From a virus, in UHGV virus genome UHGV-0081034: a stretch of 34,043 nucleotides of DNA. One strand, written 5' to 3'. The position numbers and the translations under genes were made by a program. The notes under the pieces were generated by a model. That model had not been told where the DNA came from. It did not search any database and saw only the letters and a list, made by a program, of their open reading frames with translations. Of this stretch, positions 123 through 34,043 are shown in pieces. Each line of letters begins with the position of its first letter. The first letter of the stretch is position 1.

Positions 123-1706
123 ATGGATATCATGGAAAGTCAGCAGATTGCTGAAGAGATTGACGGGTATTACATAGACCTGGAGAGTCAGATCATGCAG
201 AATATTGCCAAGCATCTAAGTGACTGGGGGCAGCCGATTGCATCCGATGAGTGGCAACTCCGCAAGCTCGCGGAAATCGGAAAGCTGGACCGAGAACATA
301 TCCTATTAATTGCAAGAATGTCGGGAATCAGTCAGACTGCAGCTATAAGGATGCTGAACGAGACGGTAGAGAAATCTATCAAGACGATCGACAGGGGACT
401 TCAAAAGGCGGCAAGAGATGGGCTCGCAGGTATTCCAGTAGCAGCAAAGAAGAGCAAGGATGTAAAGGATATGATGCAGATGTACCGAAAACAGACGAAA
501 GATTCTTTAAATACCTGTTGTACCACTATGCTGTACAAGGCGAATGTGGCGTATGTCGGACTTGTGAATGATATCACGAGAGAAGCACACATGATTCTGT
601 CAAGTTCTGCCACAGGCGTTGTATCCGGTGTAGAGTCCAGACAGCAGGCAATGGTGAAGTGCATTCGGAGGTTTTGTGAAAAAGGAATCCCGGCGTTTGT
701 TGATAAAGCTGGACGGGAGTGGACTCCTGAAGCCTATGTTAATATGTGCATGAGAAATACCGCCAAGAGAGTGGCAGACGAGGCACAGGATGCAAGGTGC
801 AGGGAAGCAGGAGTTAATCTGATTCTGATTGACAGCCATTCGGGAGCACGCCCGAAATGTGCAAAAGATCAGGGGAAAGTATTTGACCTGAATAACGGGA
901 GCGGATATACGCAAGACCTGCATGGGAAAAAAATAAGGTATTATCCGTGGAACTCATCCAGTTATGGAGAACCGGACGGAATCCTTGGAATTAATTGCCG
1001 TCATCACAAGTGGCCGTTCATTCCGGGGGTGAGTGTGCAGAGGTATTTTCCTATGGAAGACATGGCAGAGAATGACAGGCTGTATAAGCAGACGCAGATA
1101 CAGAGGGCTCTTGAGCGGGATGTCAGAAAGCAGAAGAGGCTCTGCATGATGTATGATGCTTCAGGAAATGAAGAAGCTTTCAAAGAGGCTGCTGTAAAGC
1201 TGAAAGGTGCAGAGAAGAAACTCAAGGGGTATGTAAGCGATACACCGGGACTGCACAGAAGATCTGACAGGGAGAGGGTGGTTGGGTTTGATAAGAGAGT
1301 ATCGGCTGAAGCTGTTGCGAAGAATAAGAAAGTACAAAAAGAAGTTGATATTAAGAAAAGAAATGATAAAATAAAAGCAGAGCTATCAGAAGCAAAAATA
1401 AAAGGTGTTCCACAAATCAGTCCAGATAAAATAGATGTTTCAAAATTTACATTTGACACTGCTCATATAAATGCAGAAAGAGAACATGGCGTTTCCAGGA
1501 ATGAAGCGGAAAGGTTTATAAAAGAAGCTGATATATCTCTTACACGCTGGAACGGAAGATTTGTAAATTATTACGGACCTAATGGAGCCGTGTATGTTGA
1601 TATGGAAAATAATAATATCCGAACAGCATTTAAGAAAGAGCAATTTGATGAACCAACATTGAAAATCAGGGAGGTGGCAGAAAAATATGGCATCAAAAAA
1701 GATTAA
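123..1706 (+). CDS. MuF / SPP1 gp7-like minor head (head morphogenesis) protein with an extended C-terminus (K-rich linker plus ~100-aa terminal domain; candidate polymorphic toxin domain)
   Basis: 527 aa. Central region carries Phage_Mu_F-like motifs (VFDLNNGSGYTQDLHGKK...GINCRHHKWPFIPG). RBS aaggtga before ATG 123. Position immediately after portal. C-terminal ~200 aa lies beyond the usual MuF core. Confidence 0.8.
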   Translation: MDIMESQQIAEEIDGYYIDLESQIMQNIAKHLSDWGQPIASDEWQLRKLAEIGKLDREHILLIARMSGISQTAAIRMLNETVEKSIKTIDRGLQKAARDGLAGIPVAAKKSKDVKDMMQMYRKQTKDSLNTCCTTMLYKANVAYVGLVNDITREAHMILSSSATGVVSGVESRQQAMVKCIRRFCEKGIPAFVDKAGREWTPEAYVNMCMRNTAKRVADEAQDARCREAGVNLILIDSHSGARPKCAKDQGKVFDLNNGSGYTQDLHGKKIRYYPWNSSSYGEPDGILGINCRHHKWPFIPGVSVQRYFPMEDMAENDRLYKQTQIQRALERDVRKQKRLCMMYDASGNEEAFKEAAVKLKGAEKKLKGYVSDTPGLHRRSDRERVVGFDKRVSAEAVAKNKKVQKEVDIKKRNDKIKAELSEAKIKGVPQISPDKIDVSKFTFDTAHINAEREHGVSRNEAERFIKEADISLTRWNGRFVNYYGPNGAVYVDMENNNIRTAFKKEQFDEPTLKIREVAEKYGIKKD

Positions 1707-1866
1707 ATGCCCGTTATTAGGGAATGAAATTGAAGATGGGATATGCTTTGATATTCACATGAATGTTGAAGGACTGGCACCTGATTGGACGATTCCGGAA
1801 GCAGTGCTAAAAGTCGAAGATTACAAGGAAATCTGTTCGAAGTGTTCAAATCATAGAGAGGACTAA
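1687..1866 (+). CDS. Small Cys-rich protein (59 aa, C8/C20/C50/C53) overlapping the 3' end of the MuF gene; candidate immunity protein or zinc ribbon
   Basis: ATG 1687 preceded by gggaggtgg at ~1669-1677. ORF MASKKIKCPLLGNEIEDGICFDIHMNVEGLAPDWTIPEAVLKVEDYKEICSKCSNHRED. Below the ORF-track length cutoff. Located exactly where MuF-toxin immunity genes sit. Confidence 0.35.
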   Translation: MASKKIKCPLLGNEIEDGICFDIHMNVEGLAPDWTIPEAVLKVEDYKEICSKCSNHRED

Positions 1867-2253: not shown

Positions 2254-2906
2254 AGCTTATGAATATGAAAAAAAGATATTGGACATACGATCTGCAGTTA
2301 TTTGCAGAGGGGGATGGAGACGATTCCGGGGATGACGGAGAGGATGACGCGGAAGGCGATGACGATGATTCGGAAGAGGATGAAGACGACGCTGATCCAG
2401 AAGGTGATGAGAAGAAATTCTCCCAGAAAGAAGTAGATGAAGCTGTGAAAAAGCGTCTTGCAAGGGAACGCAGAAAATGGCAGAGAGAACAGCGGAAGAA
2501 AGCTGGAAGTAAAAAGAAACCTGACGGTAAGGAAAAAACCGGAGAAGATGGCAAAGAGGATGATGAAGAAACACAGGAACTCCGTAACAAGGCAGCCAAA
2601 GCGGAAGAGATGGAACTGAAATGGACGTGTCTGGAGCATGACGTGGACAAGTCCTGTGTAGATGATGTCCTTGCATTGGCTAGAGTGCATATGGCAAAAG
2701 ACGAGGATATGGACATCGAAGATGCAATCGACGAGGTATTGAAAAAGTATCCACAGTTTAAGGAGTCCTCTAAAGAGGATGATGATACCGATGACGATGA
2801 TACAAAGAAGAAGTCCTGGGGACAGAGACAGAACGGCGGAAGAAAAAAAACTTCAGGAGTTGAAGCTGCTTTTCTGAAAAGAAATCCGGGGCTTAAGATT
2901 GATTAA
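2250..2906 (+). CDS. Scaffolding protein with N-terminal Prp-type leader (…YDLQLFA|EG) and an extremely acidic mature N-terminus
   Basis: 218 aa, K/E/D-rich and helical-looking. Precedes the major capsid gene. Carries an LQLFA motif matching the Prp cleavage consensus (L27 N-terminus LNLQFFA). Alternative in-frame starts at 2259 and 2265 give a 14-aa leader. Confidence 0.7.
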   Translation: MKLMNMKKRYWTYDLQLFAEGDGDDSGDDGEDDAEGDDDDSEEDEDDADPEGDEKKFSQKEVDEAVKKRLARERRKWQREQRKKAGSKKKPDGKEKTGEDGKEDDEETQELRNKAAKAEEMELKWTCLEHDVDKSCVDDVLALARVHMAKDEDMDIEDAIDEVLKKYPQFKESSKEDDDTDDDDTKKKSWGQRQNGGRKKTSGVEAAFLKRNPGLKID

Positions 2907-2919
2907 AGGAGAAAAAAAG

Positions 2920-3822
2920 ATGAAAAATAAAAAAGTTATTATGTTTTTACAGCTGTTTGCACATTCACATCAGGAAAGATGGTCTACTCTTGTAGATGCA
3001 AAGCTGAGACAGACACTCGTTACAAGAGATAATTATATTTTCAATACGAATTACGAAGGAAGCCCGACAGCTGGAAAGGTCAAGATTCCGGTAAGAGATA
3101 CGGAGGTCACGGTAAAAGCCTACGACAAAGCGACAGGTGTAGATCTTGAAACTGGAACCACAACCTACATTGACCTTAACATTGATCAGGACATGGCAGT
3201 CAATGAACTGATCGACGGTTATGATGCCGCGGCCGTTCCAGATAATATTGTTGCAGATCGCCTGGATTCTGCTGGATACTCTCTTGCACTGGACATGGAT
3301 AAAAAGTCTATCAATCTGCTTGAGACTACAAGTGGAATAAAGGTATGTGCTACCAAAACAGCAGCAACAGACTCTACAGCATACAAAGAAGTTCTGGATG
3401 CAAAGACATATCTGACAAGAACCGGAGTTCCACAGGCAGGACGCTGGCTGATCTGTTCTCCTGAATTCATGGCAGTGCTTATGATGGATGATCATTTTAT
3501 CCGTCAGGGAGATCTGTCCCAAGAACTGAAGAATGCAGGAGCGGTTGGATCTGTAGCGGGATTCGCAGTATTTGAGTCTGGCAACACAATGTATGCGAAT
3601 GCGACGATCGTCGGATCCAAGAAGACAACAACAGAGTTTATTGCCGGTCATCCAAACTGGTGCCACCGTGTCCAGGAGTGGGCTGTACAGGTGCACGCCC
3701 AGGATCTTGCCGGATCCGGTAAATTCATTGGAGCATCTGCGGTGCAGGGGCGTAAGATCTTCGGTCTTAAAATCTCCAAACCACAGACTGTGTATGTCAA
3801 GAGAACCGAAGCTGCAGCGTAA
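2920..3822 (+). CDS. Major capsid protein with N-terminal Prp-type leader (MKNKKVIMFLQLFA|HS)
   Basis: ATG 2920 follows aaaggag. The upstream ATG 2899 overlaps the RBS and the scaffold stop. ~300 aa directly after scaffold. Carries an LQLFA motif. Confidence 0.75.
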   Translation: MKNKKVIMFLQLFAHSHQERWSTLVDAKLRQTLVTRDNYIFNTNYEGSPTAGKVKIPVRDTEVTVKAYDKATGVDLETGTTTYIDLNIDQDMAVNELIDGYDAAAVPDNIVADRLDSAGYSLALDMDKKSINLLETTSGIKVCATKTAATDSTAYKEVLDAKTYLTRTGVPQAGRWLICSPEFMAVLMMDDHFIRQGDLSQELKNAGAVGSVAGFAVFESGNTMYANATIVGSKKTTTEFIAGHPNWCHRVQEWAVQVHAQDLAGSGKFIGASAVQGRKIFGLKISKPQTVYVKRTEAAA

Positions 3823-17815: not shown

Positions 17816-18361
17816 TTATTTCAGCAAATCTGCAATACAGATCTTAAGGTCATCATAGATTCCAACAGGAATCTCATCATCAAAAGAATATTGATTGAAG
17901 TCTTCTATATCACCAAAGAGGTAAGTCTGAACAGTCTCTTTCATTGGATTCACGATCCAGTATTCACGAACACCGGCTGTGCGGTATTTGAATAGCTTGG
18001 TAAGGTAATCCATACGCTGACTGCTTGGTGATACGATTTCGATAATGAAATCTGGGGCACCATTGCATCCATGGTCATTAATCCGGTTTGGATCACAGAT
18101 TACGGAGACATCTGGTTCTACATAGTTATGATCATCCTGATTCAGAAAAACAGCAAATGGAGCAGGCAGAACTTCGCAAGGACCTCCATGGGATTTAATA
18201 TAATCCCGGATTGTTGCGGAAAGTTCCATTACAAGTTTCTGATGAAGATAACTCGGTGGAGCCATGTCATAGATCTGACCGTCAATCAGTTCTGCACGCT
18301 GCCCATCAGGAAGAGCGTAGATGTCTTTGATTGTGTAGTTGTTTGATTTTGGTAATGGCAT
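17816..18361 (-). CDS. Uma2-family (DUF820) PD-(D/E)xK putative endonuclease
   Basis: ATG 18361 follows aagga. ~181 aa with the PDFIIEIVSPSS … GVREYWIVNP hallmark of Uma2 proteins. The track start at 18397 lacks an RBS. Confidence 0.65.
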   Translation of the reverse strand: MPLPKSNNYTIKDIYALPDGQRAELIDGQIYDMAPPSYLHQKLVMELSATIRDYIKSHGGPCEVLPAPFAVFLNQDDHNYVEPDVSVICDPNRINDHGCNGAPDFIIEIVSPSSQRMDYLTKLFKYRTAGVREYWIVNPMKETVQTYLFGDIEDFNQYSFDDEIPVGIYDDLKICIADLLK

Positions 18362-18409
18362 GTGTTCACATCCTTTTGTAATATTATAAAGAAACAATTC
18401 ATAAATAGC

Positions 18410-19282
18410 CTATCCAATTAAGTTGTTTTGTGATGCAGTATCAATTTCCATTGGCGGAATTTCAAGATTGGAAAAAAGCAATTCTTTTCCTTGGACATGT
18501 GTATTAACAGAATAATCCAAATAAATATTTTGGCGCTTGCTTTTTTGATAGAGCTTTCGAATTTCTGGATGATCATCGTAGCTCACCAACCAAGGATATG
18601 ATTTATTTTTAATAAATTTGGCTAATCTTATATGCATACTTTTATCATAAGAATAGCGATACAAAGTAGGCCCCTTTTCATAATAAGGAGGATCGACATA
18701 TACAAATGTGTTATAATTTCTTTTATATTTTGTTTTTTCGTTTAAAAAATCAAGAGCATCCATATTGTATATTTCAATTCTGTCGGAGAAACAAGATAAC
18801 TCACGGATACTTTTAATAATTTTTTCCTTGTTAAAGCGACAATCAATTTTGTATTGTGATTCCTGTTTCATTCCTCCGAGTGGATTCGCATTTAATATAC
18901 CAGAAAAACTTGTTCTATTTAGGTACAATCCGGCAAATCCTATTTCTAGCGGAGATTTATTTGTAAGGTATGAAGAATTTCGGTATTGCGAATAATGCAT
19001 CCAATTATCTAACGTAATGTCAACGTTTTCAATTAGAGTTATTAAATTGTTGGTATCATTCATTACTGATAACCAGAAATAATAAATTAAAGGATCTAAT
19101 TCGTTAATTATTGCTTTTGAAATCGTTTTTGATTCAAGTAATGCTAAGGAAACTGCTGCGCTACCAGCATAAGGCTCATATAAGGTGCAATTAGTAAGAT
19201 GTTCTGTTTCAAGTAGTTTTTTTATGTAGGGAACTAATTTTGATTTTGCACCTGGATAACGCAAAGGATTTTTAATTGGCAT
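18410..19282 (-). CDS. dam: DNA adenine (N6) methyltransferase, Dam / D12 class
   Basis: 290 aa. N-terminal LRYPGAKSKL and YEPYAGSAAV (AdoMet) motifs and a DPPY catalytic motif (YVDPPYY). Very AT-rich gene. Confidence 0.8.
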   Translation of the reverse strand: MPIKNPLRYPGAKSKLVPYIKKLLETEHLTNCTLYEPYAGSAAVSLALLESKTISKAIINELDPLIYYFWLSVMNDTNNLITLIENVDITLDNWMHYSQYRNSSYLTNKSPLEIGFAGLYLNRTSFSGILNANPLGGMKQESQYKIDCRFNKEKIIKSIRELSCFSDRIEIYNMDALDFLNEKTKYKRNYNTFVYVDPPYYEKGPTLYRYSYDKSMHIRLAKFIKNKSYPWLVSYDDHPEIRKLYQKSKRQNIYLDYSVNTHVQGKELLFSNLEIPPMEIDTASQNNLIG

Positions 19283-19334
19283 AAAATCACCTCCTAAATT
19301 TTATTATACATAAAAATAATATATTTGGCCAGAA

Positions 19335-20906
19335 TTATTCGAGTATATCCAAAATAGGAATATCATTTTGTAACGCTAATTGATTGAATATTTCAACATA
19401 ATTGTTCAAAAACAGTTGATATTCGGAAGGGCGAGTGAGTTTCCAATAATTATATAACTTGGAATTACCTCTTCCCCAGTATTTTTCTTGTTCTTTGAAC
19501 CATTTTTTGTATTGCTGAGGGTCGGCGTTACGATCAATTAGTGTAGGATAATTTGCAAAACATTTTTTCTTATCATATTCGCCTAACTCAGTATCCCAAA
19601 AAGAATCTGTTTCGTCCAAAGAATAAAGAAACCTGTAAAACATTTCTTCAGGACAAGTAGTGCCAGGAAGAAACATTACATATTTTCCACGATATTGTTT
19701 AATCTTTTTGCAAATTGATTGCTTATTTTTATCACCATCAAGAATCAAGATACTTTCACAAACGGGTTTTAGTTTTACTCGTAATAATTCAAGGTATGAT
19801 TCAGCACCAATAGAACATGGGCTAAAAACAATATTTTTTCTAAAACCACCATTAAGGAGTGACTTAACAAATGATTGCGCTACATCATCTTCGGTAAAAA
19901 TTGTAATTTTAGGTATGACATCTGGAGTACCTTTAACTGAACCAGATAATTCTAAAATTACATCGTCAATAGAAGTAGTAGGCTTATTTTTTACCAAATT
20001 TCCTTCTTTCTTTAAATATACAAGTTTAGTTTCTTTTGGATTGTATTTATCAAAAAAAGTAGCTTTTAACACAGAAGGAGAGTGTGTTGTAAAAATAAAT
20101 TGTATTTTATAATCACCGGCATATTTATAAAGACGCTTAATGAGCCTCATTTGTGACAAAGGATGAAAAGTTGATTCAATTTCATCAATCAGCAGAATTC
20201 CACCTTTATAATCATTTGGATATTTTTGCATTAGGCGTCTAAAGGATAATACAGAAATTAGAATTTTCCCTAAGTTGTCTTGACCAGCAGAAATAGATAG
20301 CGCATCTTGATCATTTGGGTGAATAGATGCAGTATATTTTATTCCAGAATGTATAGTATCAATTTCTATATTATCTGATAGATCTGACATAATGTCTTTA
20401 TACTCCAATGTTAAAAATTTCTTTTCTTCAGGAGTGAGCTGATTTAAGTATTCAAAAGAGTCTTCTTCGCCAATAGGAGAAACTCTTTTTAAGCTTAAAT
20501 AATAAACAGGAACTTGTGGGTATCCGGTTCCAGCACCTTTACCTTCAGTAGACCAAAAGCGAGGAATTGGATCTGATTTATCACGATATATACTATGTGC
20601 TTCAAAATAATCATTTTTGTATATATTAGGATATAAATTTAAACGCCATTTATGCGTTCCAGGAATATCTTTATCTGAAAGTTTAAATTTTTCTGCAAAT
20701 TGTGAACGATATTTGTAATTATCAATGGAACTTTCGCCATACATGGGATTATTTTTATTTATAGAAAAGGTTTGTCCTAAAATACCTAGAGTGGTAGTTT
20801 TCATAGTTCCATTATGACCAACTATTGCGGTTAGTTTTGTACCTAAATCAAAATCTACATTTTCAAGAGCTCTAAACTTATCTATGTGTACGCTTTTAAT
20901 TATCAT
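19335..20906 (-). CDS. OLD-family ATPase-nuclease (N-terminal ABC-type ATPase plus C-terminal Toprim-like domain); class 1 OLD or fused PARIS-like defence protein
   Basis: 523 aa. Walker A-like GHNGTMKTT, Walker B LLIDEIESTFHP, H-loop TTHSP. C-terminal IFTEDD … ILILDGDKN resembles Toprim E / DxD. Very AT-rich, with its own promoter region at 20907-21025. Confidence 0.6.
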   Translation of the reverse strand: MIIKSVHIDKFRALENVDFDLGTKLTAIVGHNGTMKTTTLGILGQTFSINKNNPMYGESSIDNYKYRSQFAEKFKLSDKDIPGTHKWRLNLYPNIYKNDYFEAHSIYRDKSDPIPRFWSTEGKGAGTGYPQVPVYYLSLKRVSPIGEEDSFEYLNQLTPEEKKFLTLEYKDIMSDLSDNIEIDTIHSGIKYTASIHPNDQDALSISAGQDNLGKILISVLSFRRLMQKYPNDYKGGILLIDEIESTFHPLSQMRLIKRLYKYAGDYKIQFIFTTHSPSVLKATFFDKYNPKETKLVYLKKEGNLVKNKPTTSIDDVILELSGSVKGTPDVIPKITIFTEDDVAQSFVKSLLNGGFRKNIVFSPCSIGAESYLELLRVKLKPVCESILILDGDKNKQSICKKIKQYRGKYVMFLPGTTCPEEMFYRFLYSLDETDSFWDTELGEYDKKKCFANYPTLIDRNADPQQYKKWFKEQEKYWGRGNSKLYNYWKLTRPSEYQLFLNNYVEIFNQLALQNDIPILDILE

Positions 20907-31371: not shown

Positions 31372-32650
31372 GTTTGCTCCTTTTTCCGAGCAACAGCAGA
31401 GGCTTATGCATTGGTGGAGACCACCACTTGCAAGTTCTTCTTGTGATTTCGTGATTGCTGATGGAGCTATCCGATCGGGAAAGACGATAGCGTGTATCAT
31501 AGGTTTTCTCACATGGTCACAAGAGATGCATTCTGGGAAATCGTTTGTCCTTGCCGGTAAGACAATGGGAGCACTTAAGAAGAATGTGATTCGACCAATG
31601 CTTCAGATTCTTGAAGCGTGGGGATGGCCGTATGAATATATCAGATCGGGGACAGATGCAAGGATTGAGATCGGGAGTAATACATACTACCTGTACGGAG
31701 CGAATACCGAAGCGGCACAGGATGCCCTCCAGGGATTGACTGCTGCTGGCGCATATCTGGACGAGGCGGCGCTATTCCCTAAAAGCTTCGTGGATCAGGC
31801 GATTGGACGCTGCTCTGTGGAGGGTGCAAAGATCTGGATGAACTGTAACCCAGCAGGACCACACCATTATATCCGGGAAGAGTACATTCTTCAGGCAAAA
31901 CAAAAGAAAGTCTACCATCTGCATTTCATGATGACGGATAATCTTACGTTATCTTCGAAGGTGTTGGAACGATACCGCAGAGCATGGCCACATGGAAGTG
32001 TGTTCTACAAGCGTTTCATTCTTGGAAAATGGGTAGCTGCTGATGGTCTTATCTACCAGCAGTTCGCGGACCATGTAGAAGATTATCTTATTGATCAGAA
32101 GTGGTTAGATGAAAATCAAATAGCATATGCAGTGATTGGAGTCGATTTCGGTGGTACGAAGTCGGCTCATTCTTTTACCCTTACAGGATTTACAAAAGGG
32201 TATAAGCGGGTGGTTGTGTTGGATGAATATTACCGAAAGGAGCGTATCAATCCAAAGCAATTACAGGAAGACTTTATTGACTTTGTAAGAAGAGCACAGA
32301 GTCGATACAAAGTATATGAAGCATACTGTGACAGTGCTGAACAGGCTTTGATTGCAGGCTTTGAGAGTGCGGTGATTCATGAACATATAGTGATAGAGAT
32401 CAAGAATGCAATTAAAGGATCTATCAATGATCGGATCGCATTCTACAACAGTCTGATTGCCCAGCACAGGTGGAAAGTTATGCGGCATTGTACGCATATC
32501 ATTGCAGCATTTGAAGAAGCGGTATATGACGAGAAAAAGAAGAGCATGGATGTCCGGCTGGATGATGGCGAAATGAACGTGGATAGTTTGGACAGTACAG
32601 AATACAGCACAGAAAACGTACAGGAAGACATTTTGTACATAGCAGCGTAG
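31337..32650 (+). CDS. terL: Terminase large subunit (PBSX/XtmB-type, headful packaging)
   Basis: ATG 31337 follows aggagg. Walker A-like DGAIRSGKT and ATPase coupling motif LDEAA. C-terminal RNaseH-like nuclease region. Confidence 0.85.
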   Translation: MPRKQKKPTRFKFAPFSEQQQRLMHWWRPPLASSSCDFVIADGAIRSGKTIACIIGFLTWSQEMHSGKSFVLAGKTMGALKKNVIRPMLQILEAWGWPYEYIRSGTDARIEIGSNTYYLYGANTEAAQDALQGLTAAGAYLDEAALFPKSFVDQAIGRCSVEGAKIWMNCNPAGPHHYIREEYILQAKQKKVYHLHFMMTDNLTLSSKVLERYRRAWPHGSVFYKRFILGKWVAADGLIYQQFADHVEDYLIDQKWLDENQIAYAVIGVDFGGTKSAHSFTLTGFTKGYKRVVVLDEYYRKERINPKQLQEDFIDFVRRAQSRYKVYEAYCDSAEQALIAGFESAVIHEHIVIEIKNAIKGSINDRIAFYNSLIAQHRWKVMRHCTHIIAAFEEAVYDEKKKSMDVRLDDGEMNVDSLDSTEYSTENVQEDILYIAA

Positions 32651-32662
32651 GGGGTGAGAAAG

Positions 32663-34043
32663 ATGAGTACGACAGTAAACAGAGCAGTGAAATCATATCT
32701 TTTAAAGCGCGAATTCAATGTTGTATCAGACGATACATACAACCATATAGATGAGTGGCTTGACTGGTATCAGAATGATGTGGAGAAATTCCATAAGTAC
32801 AGTGTATACAACGGCGTAGTCATGACAAAACAGGATCGGTATAAGCTTGGCATGGCCAAGACGGTTAGTGAAGACTGGGCAAATCTTCTCCTGAATGAAA
32901 AGGTGGCGATTCACGCAGGAGGATATGATGCAAGGCTGACGGAAATCCTTCGGGCAAATAACTTCCAAACACGTGCAAATCAGCTACTAGAATTGTCCTT
33001 TGCGCTTGGAACAGGGGCATTTGTAGAATATAAAAATGCAGAGGGGGATGTGGTTATTGATTACATTCGGGCAGATATGATCTATCCTCTGGCATGGGAT
33101 AACGGAGACGTGACAGAATGCGCTTTCGGAACTCCTAAAGTTGTGGATGGGAAAAAGGTGATTTACATTCAGATTCACCGGTTTGGACGCAGCGAGGAGG
33201 AGAAAGGTGATGAGTACTATATCGAAAATAGATATATAGATCAGGAATCAGGGAAAGAGATTGATGCACCGGAAGATATTGTGGAAATTGTCGGCACGGA
33301 AAGCGTAGAGCCACTTTTTCAGCTGGTTACTCCCAACATTTGCAATAATATTGACTTGGACAGTCCACTGGGCATATCAATTTATGCAAATGCACTTGAC
33401 GAAGTGAAAGGATGTGATTTGATCTATGACAGCTATATGAATGAGTATGTTCTAGGTCGCAAGAGGATCATGGTTCCACTGAGTCAGGCGAAACGACAGA
33501 TGGAAGCTGACGGGGTTACAAATCCGGTATTTGATCCGAACGATACAGTCTACTACATTCTGCCTGAAGATCGGAATGGGGAGAACAAGCTGACTGAGGT
33601 GGATATGACGATCCGGGCATCGGATCATGAATTAGGAATGCAGAGAGCGTTAGATCTGCTCAGCTTCAAGTGTGGAATGGGTGCAGGACGCTATAAATTC
33701 GAGCAGGGCGGTGTAAAGACAGCTACAGAGGTTATATCTGACAAGTCTGATCTGTATCAGAATCGGCAGAAGCACTGCATTATTATATCTGCTGCAATCA
33801 TTAACCTGATCCGGGCTGTATCTTTCCTTGATCAGGGCGGAGTAGTAGACGCGACAGTGGATTTTGATGACTCCATTATTGAGGACAGTAATACAATTAT
33901 TGATAAGAATATCAAGTTGGTTGGTGCTGGACTCAGATCAAAGGTTAAGGCAATCATGGAGATCAATAAGTGCTCCGAGGAGGAAGCACAGGAAGAGTTG
34001 GAACGAATCAAAGAAGATGGACAAATTACCGGTCAGGACATTG
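32663..34043 (+). CDS. Portal protein (N-terminal 460 codons; ORF continues in frame into positions 1-113)
   Basis: ATG 32663 follows gggggtgag. SPP1 gp6-like portal by size and position after terL. Open to the end of the window. Confidence 0.85.
   Translation, partial: MSTTVNRAVKSYLLKREFNVVSDDTYNHIDEWLDWYQNDVEKFHKYSVYNGVVMTKQDRYKLGMAKTVSEDWANLLLNEKVAIHAGGYDARLTEILRANNFQTRANQLLELSFALGTGAFVEYKNAEGDVVIDYIRADMIYPLAWDNGDVTECAFGTPKVVDGKKVIYIQIHRFGRSEEEKGDEYYIENRYIDQESGKEIDAPEDIVEIVGTESVEPLFQLVTPNICNNIDLDSPLGISIYANALDEVKGCDLIYDSYMNEYVLGRKRIMVPLSQAKRQMEADGVTNPVFDPNDTVYYILPEDRNGENKLTEVDMTIRASDHELGMQRALDLLSFKCGMGAGRYKFEQGGVKTATEVISDKSDLYQNRQKHCIIISAAIINLIRAVSFLDQGGVVDATVDFDDSIIEDSNTIIDKNIKLVGAGLRSKVKAIMEINKCSEEEAQEELERIKEDGQITGQDI

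Follow-up and report, generated by a model that had tools for sequence, protein, structure and literature searches.

Polymorphic toxins of the MuF type (Jamet et al. 2017, PMC5576092; Apk2, PMC12226406) combine an N-terminal body of the MuF superfamily with a variable C-terminal extension, are encoded directly after the portal gene and are followed immediately by a short open reading frame (ORF) of less than 150 aa. Temperate phages are their expected carriers, and about two thirds of the MuF C-terminal extensions are without an assigned domain (PMC5576092). The studied MuF protein, gp7 of SPP1, is bound to the portal and present in 1–2 copies per capsid (PMC5576092). Neutralisation of such a toxin by the downstream immunity protein was shown experimentally for Apk2 (PMC12226406) and analogously for Bxa (PMC11699363). 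Here we analysed a locus of this kind in the virus genome UHGV-0081034, a stretch of 34,043 nt (hereafter the window), in which the gene for a minor head protein ends in a module of ~98 residues and overlaps a small gene for a 59-aa protein with four conserved cysteines, hereafter the Cys4 gene and Cys4 protein.

The locus resembles the described MuF systems in its MuF-superfamily body (here PF06152), in its position directly after the portal gene, in the variable extension followed immediately by a small ORF of only 59 aa, and in belonging to a temperate phage of gut Firmicutes that is abundant in human gut metagenomes. It differs from them in that its C-terminal domain is not among the catalogued toxin domains and lacks a Pfam model, and in that its partner is a Cys4 protein whose gene overlaps the toxin gene and is occasionally fused to the module. 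We consider it rather probable that the 3′ end of the minor head protein gene and the overlapping small gene together form a two-gene effector/inhibitor cassette in the manner of the MuF polymorphic toxins. Systems in which such a toxin is followed by an immunity gene are already known; what is new here is the module family, which is absent from Pfam and would fall into the class of extensions without known domain of Jamet et al., together with its partner family. The Cys4 family is new in being uncatalogued and in comprising orphan copies and rare fusions.

The minor head protein and its exchangeable 3′ end

The minor head protein gene (123–1706, + strand, ATG start) encodes 527 aa. Its body was assigned by Pfam hmmscan to Phage_min_cap2 (PF06152), which covers residues 7–371 (141–1235, +) with an E value of 7e-91, while PHROG 581, 'minor head protein', aligns with residues 5–449 (E 4e-105). 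The product names at NCBI are 'minor capsid protein' for the 527-aa protein and 'hypothetical protein' for the 59-aa protein, both of Caudoviricetes sp. The Pfam family of the body is PF06152 and not Phage_Mu_F (PF04233); the label MuF is nevertheless acceptable in a broad sense, because Jamet et al. (2017, PMC5576092) count PF06152 among the MuF superfamily under the name 'MuF2'. The body is followed by a lysine-rich linker at about residues 395–429 and by the C-terminal module at residues 430–527 (1410–1703, +), for which we predict a BECR/RelE-like, RNase-type effector domain closest to BrnT. As a side observation, in one related locus (L001, 1–2785) the N-terminus of the MuF protein is replaced and a SNIPE/T5orf172 gene lies upstream.

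The original prediction, which had been made from the letters of the sequence, named the ORFs 123–1706 and 1687–1866 with their 20-nt overlap and quoted peptides from them, and all of these are present. It had placed the end of the MuF core at about residue 330, which is wrong in view of the PF06152 match to residue 371. Its proposal that the last ~100 aa lie outside the MuF body holds: they constitute a separate, horizontally exchanged module that is found on both MuF1 and MuF2 bodies and does not align to a standard structural MuF extension.

In phages with unrelated MuF bodies (L015, L016, L019, L036, L040, L045 and L047), blastn similarity to the window is restricted to a segment that begins at ~1357/1397 and ends at 1862/1915, leaving out the MuF body as well as the downstream Prp gene. 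In homologs of residues 399–527 the preceding sequence is of at least four unrelated kinds. When 1.84 billion representatives were searched with a profile, the module family was found to have 405 representatives at the 50% clustering level, nearly always with the module at the extreme C-terminus; the long members carry PF04233 (MuF1) or PF06152 (MuF2) bodies. The module was observed on MuF proteins only and is not common to other polymorphic-toxin families. Among deposited phages, tblastn detected it at 39% identity in one unannotated gut phage. A two-gene cassette of ~550 bp (1357–1915, +), comprising the end of the linker, the module, the Cys4 gene and a 3′ hairpin, moves and diverges jointly between unrelated MuF1 and MuF2 genes.

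By analogy, this exchange behaviour is that of a toxin-tip cassette in polymorphic toxin systems. As in CdiA-CT/CdiI and other orphan-immunity cassettes, the tip and its partner move as one onto different carriers, and the partner gene survives as an orphan after replacement of the toxin. Unlike in CdiA-CT/CdiI, delivery would proceed by ejection from the phage capsid instead of a secretion system, the immunity candidate is much smaller and Cys-rich, and the junction motif is N-D-K-I-K…I-K-G and not VENN. This motif, a conserved helix with the full sequence N-D-K-I-K-x-E-[LI]-x-x-A-x-I-K-G, occupies residues 413–427 (1359–1403), where it marks the 5′ end of the cassette on every type of carrier; its role may be that of a junction motif like VENN in CdiA, or of a processing site.

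In some relatives the gene is broken up by other mobile DNA. In L032 (1394–3255) and L033 a large serine recombinase gene adjoins the module and cuts it at 'FDTAHIN'. Tn916-Xis-like ORFs ending in the last 25 residues of the module (P0042/P0044; L191, 2582–2836) lie beside PemK and resolvase fragments, possibly in a chimeric assembly, with the contig ending 13 nt past the ORF.

The Cys4 gene and its linkage to the module

The Cys4 gene (1687–1866, +) starts with ATG in the +1 frame relative to the module ORF, which it overlaps by 20 nt, and its 59-aa product is predicted to be a probable metal-binding partner and inhibitor of the module. This exact protein sequence occurs on 291 contigs, and the family comprises 68 cluster representatives, mostly of 56–60 aa; the small ORF is conserved in related phages. 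With these numbers and the 405 representatives of the module family, a chance origin of either ORF is excluded. Residues C8, C20, C50 and C53 as well as P9 and H56 are conserved, also in divergent versions of 59–67 aa, in agreement with the Cys-rich character that had been proposed for it. Judging from this conservation, the four cysteines probably provide a Zn(Cys)4 site. The protein matches phrog_27009 (function unknown; E 3e-10), and no Pfam, NCBIfam or PADLOC family was found for the query, nor a Pfam family for 23 homologs. In its AlphaFold2 model (predicted local distance difference test, pLDDT, 87.5) a hairpin is followed by helices.

Several features argue for a real Cys4 gene that is translated separately, with translational coupling to the module ORF. 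The Shine-Dalgarno-like sequence AGGGAGGTGG (1668–1677, +) lies inside the R-E-V codons of the module, with GGAGG at 1670–1674, 12 nt 5′ of the Cys4 ATG. In all intact loci GGAGG or GGAG is found 10–13 nt before the ATG, despite differences in what the large ORF encodes there (REV, LEV, MEV, KEM, LEI). No intact locus has lost the ATG itself, a stop 0–8 codons upstream of it ends the +1 frame, and the gene is nearly always in the +1 frame relative to the module ORF, with an overlap of 10–53 nt.

The nearly constant +1 frame, the A6 run in the overlap of the window phage and the existence of in-frame fusions elsewhere would also be expected if ribosomes were programmed to shift into the +1 frame within the A-rich overlap (atc aaa aaa gat taa), with a MuF-module-Cys4 fusion as the real product. 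We regard this as very improbable and largely refuted, because no intact locus lacks the ATG or the Shine-Dalgarno sequence, a stop closes the +1 frame just upstream, and the overlaps vary in length (11–53 nt) and sequence, with no conservation of the A-run; translational coupling is the better explanation for the same reasons. Moreover, P0171 and P0197, the genuine fusions, are ordinary ORFs read in frame and no frameshift sites. The short in-frame 'fusions' P0043/L091 and L072/L074 were rejected, because in these contigs the MuF gene itself is frameshifted. An internal promoter for lysogenic expression of the Cys4 gene was likewise unsupported, as promoter-like matches occurred at chance level and one lay too near to the ATG.

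Between the Cys4 stop codon and the start of the Prp gene, still inside the cassette, there is a stable hairpin (1865–1896) followed by a U-rich tract to 1911 (+). The region 1860–1930 has a predicted RNA folding energy of −20.9 kcal/mol (z −2.6), and a simple terminator scan gave no call at 1865–1911. Within the head operon it could serve to terminate transcription partially or to stabilise the mRNA. In L152/L154/L096 it has moved along with the Cys4 gene, as has part of it (~1860–1900) in L095.

The linkage between the two genes is strict from the side of the module. The Cys4 gene follows directly in 80 of 80 viral loci and in 7 of 7 close relatives; a divergent 67-aa copy that tblastn had missed is present in L081–L084. 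The module was never seen without a Cys4 partner (~87 loci). The reverse does not hold: a search with the Cys4 protein gave 102 loci, and the module lies directly upstream in 84 of these and is missing from 18. In L099, a relative of the window phage, similarity stops inside the MuF gene, resumes at 1696, where the Cys4 gene begins, and runs on through the Prp, scaffold and capsid genes; in place of the module there is another C-terminal domain with two small ORFs, and the Cys4 gene is kept. In L152/L154 and L188 the Cys4 gene lies after MuF genes that have a HELGH-type or DUF6883 C-terminus and small ORFs of their own, and the DNA similarity of L152/L154 to the window consists of the Cys4 gene and the hairpin only.

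Further Cys4 copies are found as orphan genes among chromosomal housekeeping genes (L008, L094), as tandem paralogs in metagenome-assembled genomes of Oscillospiraceae and Clostridia (L106, 295–738; L111, 3267–3662) and as the end of ~300-aa Fusobacteriaceae proteins of unknown function (L107, 2748–3662; L109, 2784–3671). In L095 (3336–3677) the Cys4 domain shares one protein with an N-terminal domain of 54 aa, which resembles the ORF of 55 aa found after the DUF6883-type MuF gene of L188. The asymmetric linkage, and the swap of the tip with retention of the partner, fit the pattern of toxin/immunity cassettes, because a toxin needs its inhibitor to persist and an inhibitor is useful alone. 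The original proposal of the small ORF as partner of the toxin module is therefore upheld as far as conservation, separate translation and strict linkage are concerned.

A second family of small ORFs, of 74–81 aa and with no Pfam match, was observed directly 5′ of the Cys4 gene where the MuF protein has another C-terminus. Its members are located in L099 (3250–3474), L152 (2229–2474), L154 (2224–2469) and L096 (333–644), the last of which is fused to the Cys4 domain.

Predicted fold of the module and the weighing of alternatives

The AlphaFold2 model of the module, computed with 18 homologs, reached a pLDDT of 88.3 and a predicted TM-score of 0.80. It consists of an irregular N-terminal segment, a helix (30–39), four strands (42–46, 51–55, 59–64 and 69–75) and a second helix (81–94), and contains the helix plus four strands by which the BECR fold is defined by Iyer et al. 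(2017). Among 64 diverse representatives, down to 33% identity, H19, G59 and T72 of the module (H448, G488 and T501 of the full protein) are strictly invariant, and D16, R24, H26, A33, W47, G49 and I70 are nearly so. In the numbering of the full protein, the conserved residues besides H448 and T501 are D445, R453, H455, W476, G478, Y483/Y484, G488 and R500. T501 sits in strand 4 and H448 just upstream of the modelled helix, which appears to match the BECR signature of a His close to the helix at the N-terminus and a Ser/Thr in strand 4. H448 (1464–1466, +) and T501 (1623–1625, +) are hence candidate catalytic residues.

In structural comparisons the model scored highest with 7vd7_A, the toxin of a Salmonella toxin-antitoxin complex (6.1; 70 residues aligned, 20% identity), followed by the CdiA-CT 5i4q (4.7), BrnT (3u97, 4.4), a second CdiA-CT (8ey4, 4.2), RelE3 (3bpq, 4.2) and Colicin D (5znm, 4.1). 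Weak Foldseek matches were repeatedly to small RelE, HigB and CdiA-CT toxins. Taken together, the predicted fold and the conservation pattern fit an endoribonuclease of the BECR/RelE type.

Two RNase families are among the closest described systems. The module resembles BrnT of the BrnT/BrnA type II toxin-antitoxin systems (PF04365; 7vd7, 3u97) in its size of ~90 aa, in its modelled helix with a four-stranded sheet and in similar-looking local motifs, which are F-x-[WF]-D…H-G-V…[DE]-A for the N-terminus and, for the last strand, I-R-[IT]. It differs in having no significant sequence relationship to BrnT by hmmscan or profile-profile comparison, in being the C-terminal domain of a virion protein where BrnT is a free toxin, and in being paired with a Cys4 mini-protein and not with a BrnA-type antitoxin. 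With the PBECR domains on MuF and portal proteins described by Iyer et al. (2017, PMC5512222) it shares the idea of a BECR-fold RNase at the MuF C-terminus, presumed to be packaged and injected, and the active-site logic of an N-terminal His and a Ser/Thr in strand 4. Unlike these, it has no Pfam PBECR match in the query and 64 members, and it always occurs with the Cys4 protein, whereas an inhibitor gene for PBECR is not mentioned in the section of that paper that was consulted. We therefore describe the module as probably working like a BECR/BrnT-type RNase, on the grounds of its model and conserved residues, but assign it neither to BrnT nor to the PBECR families.

A number of results weigh against the effector/inhibitor reading. 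On the side of the module, no Pfam toxin model matched the query or any of 64 members; the models PBECR1-5 gave no match at E ≤ 1 in the query and none in the 64 members, and BrnT_toxin (PF04365) gave no hmmscan match in either. The last 98–129 residues had no match in Pfam, NCBIfam or PADLOC, searches of PHROGs and PDB profiles revealed no toxin family either, hhalign of the module against 7vd7 and against a BrnT alignment gave a probability of ~1% or less, and Foldseek of the model against PDB returned nothing below an E value of 0.2. The module is also near-neutral (mean pI 6.4) and not basic like the classic RelE toxins, and the charge complementarity sought between a basic RNase and an acidic inhibitor was not clearly present. 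On the side of the partner, the Cys4 protein does not resemble a known immunity or antitoxin fold and has no structural or sequence relative in PDB, and the co-divergence of module and Cys4 protein (r 0.92) is explicable by linkage alone, with the Cys4 protein evolving faster. Lastly, two proteins, P0171 (590 aa) and P0197 (501 aa), consist of a full-length MuF1 protein whose module continues in frame into a Cys4 domain.

The toxin-like C-terminal domain of the original prediction is thus supported by the predicted fold and by the conserved His and Thr, which fit a toxin of the BECR/RelE RNase type, and finds no counterpart among sequence models. Its more specific suggestion of a PBECR-type toxin was not substantiated, as the module matched no PBECR, Ntox, RelE or BrnT model and the Foldseek matches were not significant.

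The missing basic charge and the lack of a significant sequence or Foldseek link to active toxins would also suit an inert nucleic-acid-binding or structural BECR-like domain, adjoined by a Cys4 protein with a role in virion assembly or regulation; both genes lie inside the head-gene operon. A precedent for such a domain exists in Mu gp30, where the C-terminal domain of Mu protein F was proposed by Iyer et al. (2017, PMC5512222) to be an inactive PBECR with a predicted RNA-binding role. We consider a non-toxic extension improbable for three reasons. The strict or near-strict conservation of H448, T501, R453, H455, D445 and R500 in the 64 representatives points to an active site, the cassette swaps between unrelated head proteins and most MuF proteins lack the module (PMC5576092), and there are chromosomal copies of the Cys4 gene outside any phage.

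The fusions deserve closer attention. Three independent samples contain P0171 in identical form, amid the usual order of terminase, portal, MuF and scaffold genes, and P0197 is known from one sample. In total, 2 of 144 representatives, from two divergent lineages, are in-frame fusions of module and Cys4 domain. They strongly indicate that module and Cys4 protein act together physically. At the same time they are awkward for a simple dissociable immunity protein and leave room for a Cys4 domain that acts as an accessory subunit or as an autoinhibitor in cis.

In the former case the cassette would encode a two-part effector, split in most phages and fused in a few, in which the Cys4 protein is an obligatory accessory subunit (a zinc-binding factor for substrate or ribosome recognition, a stabiliser or a packaging chaperone) and acts jointly with the module after delivery. 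Besides the fusions in two divergent lineages, this would account for the obligatory presence of the Cys4 gene from the side of the module, for coupled translation in amounts of ~1:1 and for the absence of a known immunity fold. It is rather unlikely in our view, because in the loci described above (L099; L152/L154, L188; L008, L094, L106, L111; and L095, L107, L109 with their fusions to unrelated N-terminal regions) the Cys4 gene has been retained or transferred with no module beside it, and an accessory subunit without its enzyme, unlike an inhibitor, has no obvious use. Fusion is moreover compatible with inhibition, given that fused toxin-antitoxin proteins are known. Examples of these are CapRel and EzeT.

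The reading as an effector/inhibitor cassette leads to the following scheme. The MuF2 body would, as established for gp7 of SPP1, put the protein inside the capsid at the portal, and the module of ~98 residues would be a passenger that enters the next cell with the DNA. There it may act as an endoribonuclease that is small, needs no metal and belongs to the BECR/RelE fold class, with BrnT as its nearest counterpart, with H448 and T501 as the likely catalytic pair, aided by R453, H455 and R500. The Cys4 protein would be made from its own start by translational coupling, in amounts of ~1:1, would probably fold round a Zn(Cys)4 site, bind the module and silence it in the producer during late expression. 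Free Cys4 genes in other phages and in chromosomes could protect cells from the modules of incoming phages. We infer this immunity role from the arrangement and distribution of the genes.

We would extend the scheme only hesitantly, as a speculation with a low chance of being right, to a Cys4 protein that is a portable anti-effector. It would have begun as the inhibitor of a capsid-delivered RNase, would then have been captured by rival phages and chromosomes against injected modules, and in the fused lineages would serve as an autoinhibitor in cis that is released on ejection or unfolding.

Phage context and biological meaning

The 34-kb window is a complete, circularly permuted genome of a temperate phage, as the portal gene reads continuously across the window ends. 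This gene, for an SPP1-type portal of 497 aa, spans 32650–34043 and 1–113, lies directly upstream of the MuF gene and its product has 99% identity to the portal of L002. In the identical relatives L002–L007 the order is terminase, SPP1_portal and MuF gene. Downstream of the cassette follow the genes for a Prp protease (1927–2253, PF04327), a scaffold-like protein (2250–2906) and a capsid-like protein (2899–3822), the latter two taken from the ORF list; homologs of the capsid-like protein in relatives match Phage_capsid_4. The motif 'LQLF|A' was noticed at residues 15–19 of the scaffold-like and 17–21 of the capsid-like protein, is conserved in L007, L099 and L012 and is absent from the MuF and Cys4 proteins. 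It resembles the site at which Prp cuts ribosomal protein L27 and the head proteins of phage 80alpha.

The window also encodes a tape-measure protein, an amidase and the large terminase, and its temperate character is evident from a tyrosine integrase, a CI-like helix-turn-helix repressor and ImmA/IrrE. Beside the integrase, on the − strand, lie genes for a Uma2-family endonuclease (17816–18397), a D12-class adenine methyltransferase (18410–19282) and an AAA_15 ATPase (19335–20906), the latter with strong PADLOC matches to PtuA, GajA, AriA and HEC-04 models; this cargo (17816–20906) may represent prophage-borne defence genes. A megablast search of deposited phages with the first 6 kb of the window gave no match. 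Hundreds of metagenomic contigs encode both proteins in identical or nearly identical form, and contigs of up to 365 kb hold genes identical to those of the window. The genomes to which contigs with related loci were assigned are those of Blautia, Roseburia, [Ruminococcus] torques, further Lachnospiraceae, Oscillospiraceae and a few Fusobacteriaceae.

MuF toxins are presumably widespread among temperate phages of the human gut, and only few have been tested. The cassette defines one of the unassigned MuF extensions as a large and well-delimited family, with a catalytic hypothesis in H448 and T501 and with an obligatory 59-aa partner whose small size should make biochemical work easy. As a clean system, it lends itself to asking whether head proteins inject RNases, how these are silenced in the producer and whether orphan inhibitor genes of bacteria and other phages protect against them. 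For the annotation of abundant gut-phage genes that are now called hypothetical, it provides two new domain models. If the Cys4 protein were indeed a portable anti-effector, it would represent a defence by 'immunity-gene piracy' against a virion-borne effector, and the fused forms would be RNases activated by injection.

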